A stretch of 64,000 bases of DNA, from positions 64,001-128,000 of the IMG/VR virus record IMGVR_UViG_3300036766_002288. One strand, given 5' to 3'. The position numbers and the translations under genes were made by a program. The notes under the pieces were generated by a model. That model saw only the letters and a list, made by a program, of their open reading frames with translations, did no database searches and was not told the DNA's origin. This stretch comes from a virus. Positions 2,824 to 4,977 of this stretch are shown piece after piece (the stretch's first letter is position 1; each line of letters starts with the position of its first letter).

Positions 2824-2852
2824 CTATACCTTAGTTGTACTGACTAAGGAAA

Positions 2853-2938
2853 GGGTGCTGTTCCACACGCTTGTCTGTAAAACAAGTGCCATTAATATGT
2901 GTGGTGGATGGCGATGGGTTCAAATCCTACGGTGCCCA
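2853..2938 (+). tRNA. Atypical D-armless tRNA-Tyr(GTA)-like RNA
   Basis: GGGTGCT/GGTGCCC acceptor (3 G.U), A73, GCTTGT-CTGTAAA-ACAAGT, TTCAAAT T-loop; only 9 nt in place of the D-arm. Confidence 0.65.
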
Positions 2939-2945
2939 CTTGAAA

Positions 2946-3030
2946 TGTAGCGTTTGGGCATTGGCAAGCCCCACTGACTGTAAATCAGCCGCCCTATGGG
3001 CATTGTAGATTCGACTCCTGCACGCTGCAC
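2946..3030 (+). tRNA. tRNA-Tyr(GTA)
   Basis: TGTAGCG/CGCTGCA acceptor, CTGA-CTGTAAA-TCAG, variable arm, TTCGACT T-loop. Confidence 0.85.
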
Positions 3031-3992: not shown

Positions 3993-4175
3993 CTATGATA
4001 CCTAGACGTTTCAGAATACTATCTTCGTCCTCAATTATGACAGAATTAGGGATCAAAGACACCTATGGTGTTTTCTTTCCTGACTTTGGCACATTCATTA
4101 TAATGTCTGAAGAAAGAGGAATAGATGAGTTTGATGGTTGTCCCGAAGATGTTGAGTGGTTGGACTAGATAGTAT

Positions 4176-4922
4176 ATGGCTATTTTCCTAGAACATGTGA
4201 ATAAGCGAGATTTAAATAAAAGATTATTTGAAACTTTTGGCAAGTACAAAGTCTTCATTGTAGACGGCCAAGCCATTAGAAAACTTAATCTAACTGACCA
4301 TGAGTTTACTGATTCCGCCATCCATGCTACCTTTCCTAAATTAATACCAGATAAGGAAATATGGATAGATGATGTAATCAAACCGAATGAAAGATTTATA
4401 TTGATAAGTAATTTACTATCATTATACAAGTATTTAAGTAAAGAATCCTTGGACAAAGCTTATGATAAAGCATTGAAAAAAGAAAAGTCGATGAGGGAAA
4501 AGGTAGACAACGTAAGATTACATCCAGAAAAAACGAATGAAAGAGCGTCACCGAAGGTTTACAAGAGTCTATATGGTAAGATTGGAGATGTTAAGATTTG
4601 GTTGGTAGATGGGGAATACGTAAGAGATAAGTATAAGACAGATTATACCGAAGGTGGACACGATTACGTATACAAATGGATTCCACACAATGAAATTTGG
4701 ATTGAGTCCACAATGCATAAGTCTGAAATGCCTTTGATCGTTTTACATGAATTTGTGGAAAGAACATTGATGAAGACCAAGGGAATAGAGTATGATAAGG
4801 CACATACGATTGCATCGAAAGTGGAATTTGCAAAAGAAGATAAGTTTGATAGGAACGATGTTTTATCCATGACTGAGGATAAGGCATTGAAGATGGACGA
4901 GACGCGAGTGGTTAGCAACTGA
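4176..4922 (+). CDS. Hypothetical protein with internal domain duplication and HExxE motif
   Basis: (V/W)xVDGxxxR...IPxxEIWI occurs twice; LHEFVERTLM..H in the second copy. Confidence 0.75.
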   Translation: MAIFLEHVNKRDLNKRLFETFGKYKVFIVDGQAIRKLNLTDHEFTDSAIHATFPKLIPDKEIWIDDVIKPNERFILISNLLSLYKYLSKESLDKAYDKALKKEKSMREKVDNVRLHPEKTNERASPKVYKSLYGKIGDVKIWLVDGEYVRDKYKTDYTEGGHDYVYKWIPHNEIWIESTMHKSEMPLIVLHEFVERTLMKTKGIEYDKAHTIASKVEFAKEDKFDRNDVLSMTEDKALKMDETRVVSN

Positions 4923-4977
4923 TTTTGAAAATCAGGGGACCGAAAGGTTCTGTGGGTTCGAATCCCATCTCGATCCG
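4895..4977 (+). tRNA. tRNA-Ser(TGA), bulged acceptor stem; overlaps 3' end of upstream CDS
   Basis: GGACGAG/CTCG[A]TCC, G73, CTGAT-TTTGAAA-ATCAG, variable arm, TTCGAAT. Confidence 0.8.

Follow-up and report, generated by a model that had tools for sequence, protein, structure and literature searches.

The stretch of DNA analyzed here (the window) comprises 64,000 nucleotides, bases 64001–128000 of the 187-kb IMG/VR virus record IMGVR_UViG_3300036766_002288 (CheckV completeness 37%). On its plus strand, at positions 2853–2938 and within the transfer RNA (tRNA) array of a huge phage, it carries an 86-base gene that is an intact member of a large family of non-cloverleaf tyrosine tRNAs. We propose that this gene, referred to below as the rewired gene, encodes a tRNA-Tyr(GUA) with a non-cloverleaf, pseudoknotted core, and from its sequence and that of its homologs we put the probability that the product works as a tRNA-Tyr at roughly 80%.

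The window copy combines familiar tRNA-Tyr elements with an unfamiliar center. As a first-pass annotation of the window had recognized, GGGTGCT (2853–2859) faces GGTGCCC (2931–2937) across an acceptor stem with three G.U pairs and a G1-C72 end pair, followed by the discriminator A73 (2938, after which the sequence continues CTT), and the anticodon arm (2869–2887) carries GTA at 2877–2879, its strands GCTTGT and ACAAGT forming one G.U pair (2869.2887) and five further base pairs around the loop CTGTAAA. The annotation had also noted, correctly, that GTTCCACAC (2860–2868) is all that joins the acceptor stem to the anticodon stem and that the D hairpin is absent. Its count of 7 bp in the acceptor stem had to be revised, since the family alignment pairs G2860 with C2930 and gives an 8/4 arrangement of acceptor and T stems, not 7/5: the acceptor strands become GGGTGCTG (8 nt, 2853–2860) and CGGTGCCC (2930–2937), the T arm (2915–2929) has a 4-bp stem, TGGG/CCTA, and the loop TTCAAAT (2919–2925), and an apparent A.C mismatch at 49.65 disappears. 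Between the 8-bp acceptor stem and the anticodon stem there are then only 8 nt and no hairpin, namely a UU linker (2861–2862) and CCACAC (2863–2868), here called S1a, which abuts the anticodon stem. Beyond the anticodon arm, the two strands of the variable-arm stem, S2a (GCCA, 2888–2891) on the 5' side and S2b (TGGC, 2909–2912) on the 3' side, pair with each other, and the loop so enclosed holds the A/U-rich segment L2 (TTAATAT, 2892–2898), the sequence GTGTGG (S1b, 2899–2904) and, immediately 3' of it, a UGG (2905–2907) that is a candidate stand-in for G18-G19 docking on the T loop; GA separates S2b from the TGGG of the T stem. S1b is the exact complement of S1a, with six of six Watson-Crick pairs, which had led the annotation to suggest a pseudoknot in place of the D stem.

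A single 6-mer complement in one sequence is weak evidence, and the case for the pairing rests on covariation among 110 homologs. In L007, the closest relative with an array (69% protein identity), the gene is located 1 kb further down its own array; its anticodon stem is altered at four of six pairs, every change being compensated, and its S1 helix reads CCATAC/GTATGG instead of CCACAC/GTGTGG, the first compensatory change found in the proposed pairing. In L066, a distant phage whose flanking protein is 44% identical to that of the window phage, the gene is nearly identical to the window copy in its 5' half and its T-stem changes are compensated. A model built from these three genes scores its own members at 93–109 bits and everything else at 35 bits or less; a search with it (R1) added no member, either from 0.88 Mb of related loci or from the remainder of the 187-kb record. 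A blastn search of GenBank phages with the 86-mer matched an unannotated stretch of Pseudomonas phage SCYZ1, and a second blast search added the Rembedalsseter and Lyrsu phages. All three genes have the same layout and encode CCA, and their S1 pairs are CCTCAC/GTGAGG (SCYZ1), CCCCAC/GTGGGG (Rembedalsseter) and CCTGTC/GACAGG (Lyrsu03).

The wider family was collected from IMG/VR and the GTDB genome collection by a scan with the pattern TTCCNNNCNNNNNNCTGTAAN{30,55}GGTTCRA, which fixes the anticodon and the three outer bases of S1a and places no constraint on the middle three bases of S1a, on any base of S1b or on the acceptor stem; the filter applied after the scan considered only the acceptor, anticodon and T stems. 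Among the matches listed there are at least 110 distinct genes, to which all family fractions given below refer: 81 from viral contigs, 23 from bacterial genomes or metagenome-assembled genomes, five from the loci described above (L007, L066 and the three cultured Pseudomonas phages) and the window copy. The RNAs range from 79 to 95 nt in length. The linker is TT in 86 of 87 aligned members, as the pattern itself demanded, and AT in L007, which was recovered without a TT-requiring pattern.

Covariation was evaluated on a MAFFT alignment of 87 sequences with 500 shuffles as the null. The four helices are 96.2% paired, compared with 72% after shuffling; none of the 500 shuffles reaches the real alignment in percentage paired, number of double-change cells, number of pair types or covariation score, and two reach it in the number of pairs with a double change. 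The six-pair S1 helix is paired in 97.7% of cells and occurs in 41 distinct S1a/S1b combinations. Its three unconstrained pairs take 4–6 types each (CG/UA/AU/UG/GC, UA/CG/GC/AU/GU/UG and AU/UA/GC/UG/CG/GU), with 23, 51 and 27 double changes, respectively, and these middle pairs are 97% paired in register and 22–60% paired when S1b is slid by one to four columns. In the alignment of three sequences MAFFT placed S1b wrongly, and in four of the 87 rows it set S1b one column off, which accounts for some of the few unpaired cells; those four rows are 6/6 paired when S1b is located directly, and direct location yields six of six pairs in 86 of the 87 sequences. The test set beforehand for the CCACAC:GTGTGG pairing, that homologs should conserve and covary it, was thus passed, and we conclude from the pattern of substitutions that the long-range pairing is real.

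The remaining helices behave similarly. When S2b is anchored 2–3 nt ahead of the T stem, 109 of 110 genes show an S2 of at least 3 bp, against a null of 25% obtained by taking S2a from another family member, and it appears in 13 pair-type combinations, including GCC/GGC, GTC/GAC, GGC/GCC, GAC/GTC, GCG/CGC, GCT/AGC and GCA/TGC; because it covaries across the family, S2 is under selection. The first-pass annotation had drawn this stem as GCCATT (2888–2893) with GATGGC (2907–2912), which does pair in the sequence. The outer 3–4 bp (GCCA/TGGC) have family support, whereas the inner two pairs, which extend S2a to 2893 and S2b back to 2907, are peculiar to this copy, and a natural variant with T>C at 2909, which creates an A.C at the fourth pair, implies that only the outer 3 bp are firmly kept. 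All eight acceptor pairs covary in the family, and the eighth is paired in 87 of 87 rows (GC 57, UG 15, AU 8, UA 5, CG 2). In the anticodon stem, five of six pairs show double changes, with a top pair that is G.U in 82 of the 110 members and A.C in 12, while in the T stem the two loop-proximal pairs are G-C in 87/87 rows and the outer two vary with double changes. S1b starts 10–12 nt past the anticodon stem in 94/110 members, and it is directly followed by YGG in 94/110 (TGG in 71, CGG in 23). The window copy carries every invariant and near-invariant column of the 87-sequence alignment, and its CTGTAAA agrees with the family anticodon-loop consensus CUGUAAN.

We envision an RNA that keeps the outer shape of a tRNA around a differently wired center. 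Sequence and covariation show an 8-bp acceptor stem that stacks on the 4-bp T stem to give the usual 12-bp arm, a UU linker, and a strand, CCACAC, that leads straight into the 6-pair anticodon stem and pairs with GUGUGG inside the loop of the short variable-arm stem. This long-range helix probably occupies the place that the D stem has in an ordinary tRNA and stacks on the anticodon stem, and the conserved YGG after S1b may act as the D-loop G18-G19 at the elbow. S1a enters the anticodon stem as the 3' strand of a D stem does, and S1b leads into GG much as the 5' strand of a D stem leads into the D loop, which suggests a D helix rebuilt from two strands that flank the anticodon arm; the earlier label 'D-armless' is apt for the missing hairpin and off for the helix itself. 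The RNA would be excised from the array transcript by RNase P and 3' nucleases, a host enzyme would add CCA because the window copy encodes none, and the bacterial tyrosyl-tRNA synthetase (TyrRS) would charge it through A73, G1-C72, G34-U35 and the long variable region, after which it could read UAY codons.

Tyrosine identity in bacteria is attributed to A73, G34 and U35, and G1-C72 is the form that the first pair takes there (PMC9976931). The window copy has all of them (G2853-C2937 as its first pair), and in the family A73 is present in 109 of 110 genes, G1-C72 in 107 and an encoded CCA in 77. Genomic context points in the same direction. Of 24 loci with arrays for 15 or more amino acids, 23 lack a cloverleaf Tyr gene, so that the rewired gene fills the Tyr slot; in L274 it stands among 31 other tRNAs, and in L146, which counts 22, it occupies precisely the gap between Asn and Trp. 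The genome of the cultured Bacteroides phage crAss001 (MH675552.1, L389) has 23 annotated tRNAs, none of them for Tyr, and in the gap between its tRNA-Lys and tRNA-Phe lies an unannotated 95-nt gene (4141–4235) with a GTA anticodon, a 7-bp acceptor stem, a 5-bp T stem and the long-range helix ACATCA/TGATGT, which is a 7/5 variant of the same design and the only Tyr gene of the annotated array. In Planctomycetota and Alphaproteobacteria (L288, L320, L274 and L308) the gene sits within long tRNA arrays on large bacterial contigs, up to a 3.45-Mb contig in Planctomycetota and a 5.6-Mb alphaproteobacterial chromosome, each genome having a cloverleaf Tyr gene elsewhere. The design is thus common in phage and mobile tRNA arrays, contrary to the first-pass view that such an RNA is not typical of bacteria or phages, and among the functions then offered (a nuclease-resistant tRNA, a decoy or a tRNA-like regulator) the identity elements, the CCA and the arrays with no other Tyr gene favor a working tRNA-Tyr over a decoy or regulator.

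Several observations nevertheless weigh against reading the gene as a pseudoknotted, working tRNA-Tyr. The outer three S1 pairs are fixed by the search pattern; in L007 a single base separates S1b and S2b; the acceptor stem of the window copy has three G.U pairs, a number reached in only two of the 110 genes; and neither this copy nor those of L007 and L066 encodes CCA. The gene is also dispensable at its site, being absent there from L007 and from a natural variant that skips exactly 2853–2943, a cloverleaf Tyr gene lies 8 nt downstream, so that the phage may not depend on the rewired copy, and five bacterial genomes with the gene carry a cloverleaf Tyr elsewhere, which makes the rewired gene accessory in them. 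As to the fold, S1b lies within the S2 loop and both helices covary, which implies a pseudoknot unless the two helices alternate in time. A structure in which S1 is real but only makes the anticodon helix 12 bp long, with a bulge on the 3' side, S2 being no more than an alternative state, is exactly the minimum-energy fold, nested and with the 6-bp helix stacked on the anticodon stem, although thermodynamic folding does not single out this RNA (z = -1.1 and -1.7). The single base of L007, which looks tight for both helices together, and the mismatched fourth S2 pair of L066 would also suit such a structure, but it leaves the covariation of S2 in nearly all members, and the loop lengths of most of them (4–5 nt for L3 and 6–8 nt for L2), poorly accommodated, and we consider it rather unlikely.

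The rivals to the proposed decoding function make different use of the same facts. A tRNA mimic, produced and possibly charged but acting as a decoy or inhibitor of a host nuclease that targets tRNA-Tyr or of another tRNA-binding defense protein, would be in keeping with the known ability of phage-supplied tRNA-Tyr to defeat the tRNA-Tyr-degrading effector of retron-Eco7 (PMC11555353), with the cloverleaf Tyr gene that the window phage already holds next door and with the restriction of its array to Ser, Leu and Tyr. Such a mimic is quite improbable, however, given that being the sole Tyr gene of near-complete arrays fits a decoder better than an accessory decoy and that conservation of the anticodon loop, of A73, of G1-C72, of the 12-bp acceptor/T arm and often of CCA follows the pattern of a translating tRNA. 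The three wobbles, the missing CCA, the adjacent cloverleaf gene and the patchy presence at the site could also be taken to mean that the window copy is a duplicate in decay, from a family that is functional elsewhere. Yet its helices are all intact, each of the three acceptor wobbles being still a pair, and no family invariant is lost; contigs from three other sediment or freshwater studies show zero differences over 2853–2938, while the adjacent cloverleaf Tyr differs at about ten positions in two of those studies; the much more distant L066 has kept the same sequence with compensated T-stem changes; and the defect in this assembly lies instead in the neighboring cloverleaf gene, where an A at 3009 breaks G53-C61. 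A pseudogene is hence very improbable, and a working tRNA-Tyr remains the reading we prefer.

That neighbor is the cloverleaf tRNA-Tyr at 2947–3029. The A at 3009 turns its normally invariant G53-C61 into an A.C, which the Rfam alignment marks as a non-pair, whereas all contigs from other runs that cover 3009 read G; the A is either an assembly error or a damaging strain variant. The local gene order is tRNA-Ser(CGA), a spacer hairpin, the rewired Tyr gene, the 8-nt gap and the cloverleaf tRNA-Tyr, in an array that is interspersed with HNH endonuclease genes. The hairpin (2829–2849), which had been described as separate from the gene, folds as 8 bp and is indeed independent of it: in L007, which has only a 32-nt spacer at the corresponding site, most of the hairpin survives in this spacer behind tRNA-Ser(CGA) with no rewired gene following, and the natural form that skips 2853–2943 retains it as well. 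One public sediment run holds both the gene-bearing form and the form joining 2852 to 2944, so that the 86-nt gene plus 5 nt constitutes a precise presence/absence cassette, and a fourth run (X6) holds an L066-type variant with T>C at 2909 and one base fewer at 2897.

The sole GenBank phage match of the window is LR756511.1, a 595-kb uncultured phage, and relatives found through a conserved upstream protein have the same kind of array. By a neighboring protein the closest relatives are 77% and 71% identical, and metagenome loci at 69–72% protein identity are too short to reach the array. The record contains no TyrRS (PF00579) or CCA-adding enzyme (PF01743), an absence that says little in a record that is only 37% complete. 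In more distant relatives (L009, L011, L018 and LR756511), the slot immediately 5' of the conserved Tyr gene is taken by another kind of Tyr gene, which is cloverleaf-like. These odd genes (L009:11857-11939, L011:12044-12126, L018:11582-11664 and L002:7430-7511), called as Tyr by ARAGORN, start with GGGTG and have a conserved CTGTGGGAAGC in place of a proper D arm (2–3 possible D-stem pairs), a 6-bp anticodon stem, a 4-bp T stem and a C.A at the eighth acceptor position; none of the four has an S1-type complement.

The rewired gene is nearly invisible to standard gene finders. ARAGORN calls ten tRNAs in the window, the rewired Tyr gene not among them, and across 127 member loci it calls the gene in two. 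The Rfam tRNA model does not reach the gene in whole-window or 3.8-kb searches, and a search of the 111 nt from 2840 to 2950 with E up to 10 returned only a weak RF00005 match (12.9 bits, E = 2.9, gathering threshold 29), whose alignment deletes the D arm, in an output that suppresses overlapping matches of the same clan, such as tRNA-Sec. As both tools miss the design, phage tRNA complements, and the codon-usage or anti-defense analyses that depend on them, under-count Tyr.

The commonest IMG/VR type has no GenBank phage match at E <= 0.001, and an exact search of viral contigs with the 3' half formed by the T arm and acceptor gave no match. The first family pattern, GGGTG...GGGTTCRAATCCT..., was too strict and recovered only the relatives' cloverleaf 'Tyr-1' and one unrelated Tyr gene, while the pattern CTGTAANNNNNGTGCC...GGTTCAA recovered ordinary Tyr genes and, as sole family member, L007. 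Four matches to a pattern for the upstream leader region all fell by chance in coding DNA, blast matches in Dulem virus 36 and Clostridium phages, beside endonuclease genes, were likewise chance, and the KPP10-type tRNA-Tyr proved to be an ordinary cloverleaf and not a member. A strict-geometry scan for other anticodons in 3.0 Mb of fetched loci returned 95 genes with GTA and one with GCA. The latter (L172:8433-8520), a single example, has the same 8/4 pseudoknotted build with a discriminator U73, and GCA plus U73 would be the pair of changes expected for a switch from Tyr to Cys identity.

Other features of the window and its relatives merit mention. At 2478–2740, upstream of the array, a TTGACA promoter element at 2478 is followed by a small open reading frame (2572–2649, MFNLSVSLLSSLSSLLYSNAGRGTE) in which nearly every codon is one of a varied set for Ser, Leu and Tyr. 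Next come a strong stem-loop (2676–2710) that carries a T run and, immediately ahead of the Ser/Leu/Tyr array, a second TTGACA. LR756511.1 (L002 5975-6140) shows this layout too, and the region looks like a leader-peptide attenuator for the tRNA operon. At 4895–4976, directly preceding tRNA-Ser(TGA) and without an ARAGORN call, a tRNA-Sec-like match (RF01852, 32.6 bits, threshold 47) has a Ser-reading UGA anticodon and may be an 8/4-type Ser tRNA. Two huge phages share a conserved stretch of about 90 nt, GCGGTTCACGCATGAG.AATAGAGCGTGGATGGCTGGG..., between tRNA genes (L002:6255-6345 and L007:12556-12640), the L007 copy being directly upstream of its rewired Tyr gene; the stretch has no Rfam match and is absent from the window.

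To our knowledge, cytosolic, bacterial and phage tRNAs are all taken to be cloverleaves, with degenerate mitochondrial tRNAs as the known exceptions. The family described here, found in phages, a cultured crAss-like phage and bacterial arrays, keeps the outer-shape elements of a tRNA and wires the core as a pseudoknot. If its members decode, then a tRNA of different topology is accepted by RNase P, by the CCA-adding enzyme, by TyrRS, by EF-Tu and by the ribosome, and the family offers a natural test case for the parts of the tRNA core that are truly required. As for why the core was rewired, we tentatively entertain an adaptation in which loss of the D hairpin and an altered elbow and variable-arm surface would leave a fully working tRNA-Tyr unrecognizable to host tRNA-targeting defense nucleases, candidates being the tRNA-Tyr-degrading retron effectors and anticodon or class-II-specific nucleases. 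This is a possibility we rate as less likely than not; if true, it would explain both the spread of the design through phage and mobile tRNA arrays and its frequent replacement of the cloverleaf Tyr gene, and it makes the design a concrete candidate for nuclease-evading phage tRNAs.

In the full-text literature we found no pseudoknotted or D-hairpin-less tRNA of bacteria or phages, D-armless tRNAs being described for mitochondria only; the search did turn up 8/4 cloverleaves and the phage tRNA-Tyr used against retron-Eco7. The nearest comparison is with the canonical class II tRNA-Tyr(GUA) of model RF00005, exemplified by window 2947–3029 and the KPP10 tRNA-Tyr (L139). The rewired gene shares with it the GUA anticodon and its CUGUAAA loop, A73 and the G1-C72 pair, the long variable region, the T-loop sequence TTCRANN, an acceptor/T arm of 12 bp and a location in tRNA arrays, but it lacks the D hairpin, is 8/4 instead of 7/5, and builds the helix beside the anticodon stem from two strands split by the whole anticodon arm.

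Three further systems resemble it in part. The 8/4 allo-tRNAs and tRNA-Sec-like RNAs (Mukai et al. 2017, PMC5389517) likewise combine the 8/4 arrangement with a lengthened anticodon stem, a long variable arm and a long D helix (six pairs in the rewired gene), and they too occur in bacteria and phages; they retain, however, a contiguous D stem-loop with a long stem and a tetraloop, which the rewired gene does not have, and the reported types are Ser, His, Cys and Sec, whereas the rewired gene has Tyr identity. The D-armless tRNAs of animal mitochondria, such as mitochondrial tRNA-Ser(AGY) and the minimal tRNAs of nematodes and mites (PMC4394434, PMC2797822), share the absence of a D hairpin and the short linking strand. 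Those tRNAs are short and have an unpaired loop in place of the arm, while in the rewired RNA the strand is base-paired to the variable loop with strong covariation, and the RNA as a whole is 79–95 nt long (86 in the window), with a normal T arm and a long variable region. The tyrosine-accepting tRNA-like structure of brome mosaic virus and other bromoviruses (PMC9976931) is also a viral RNA with Tyr identity elements, namely A73 and anticodon-like bases. It forms the 3' terminus of a plant RNA virus genome, carries C1-G72, is no L-shaped decoder and takes no part in translation, whereas the rewired gene is a free-standing gene in the tRNA array of a DNA phage and has a standard anticodon loop.

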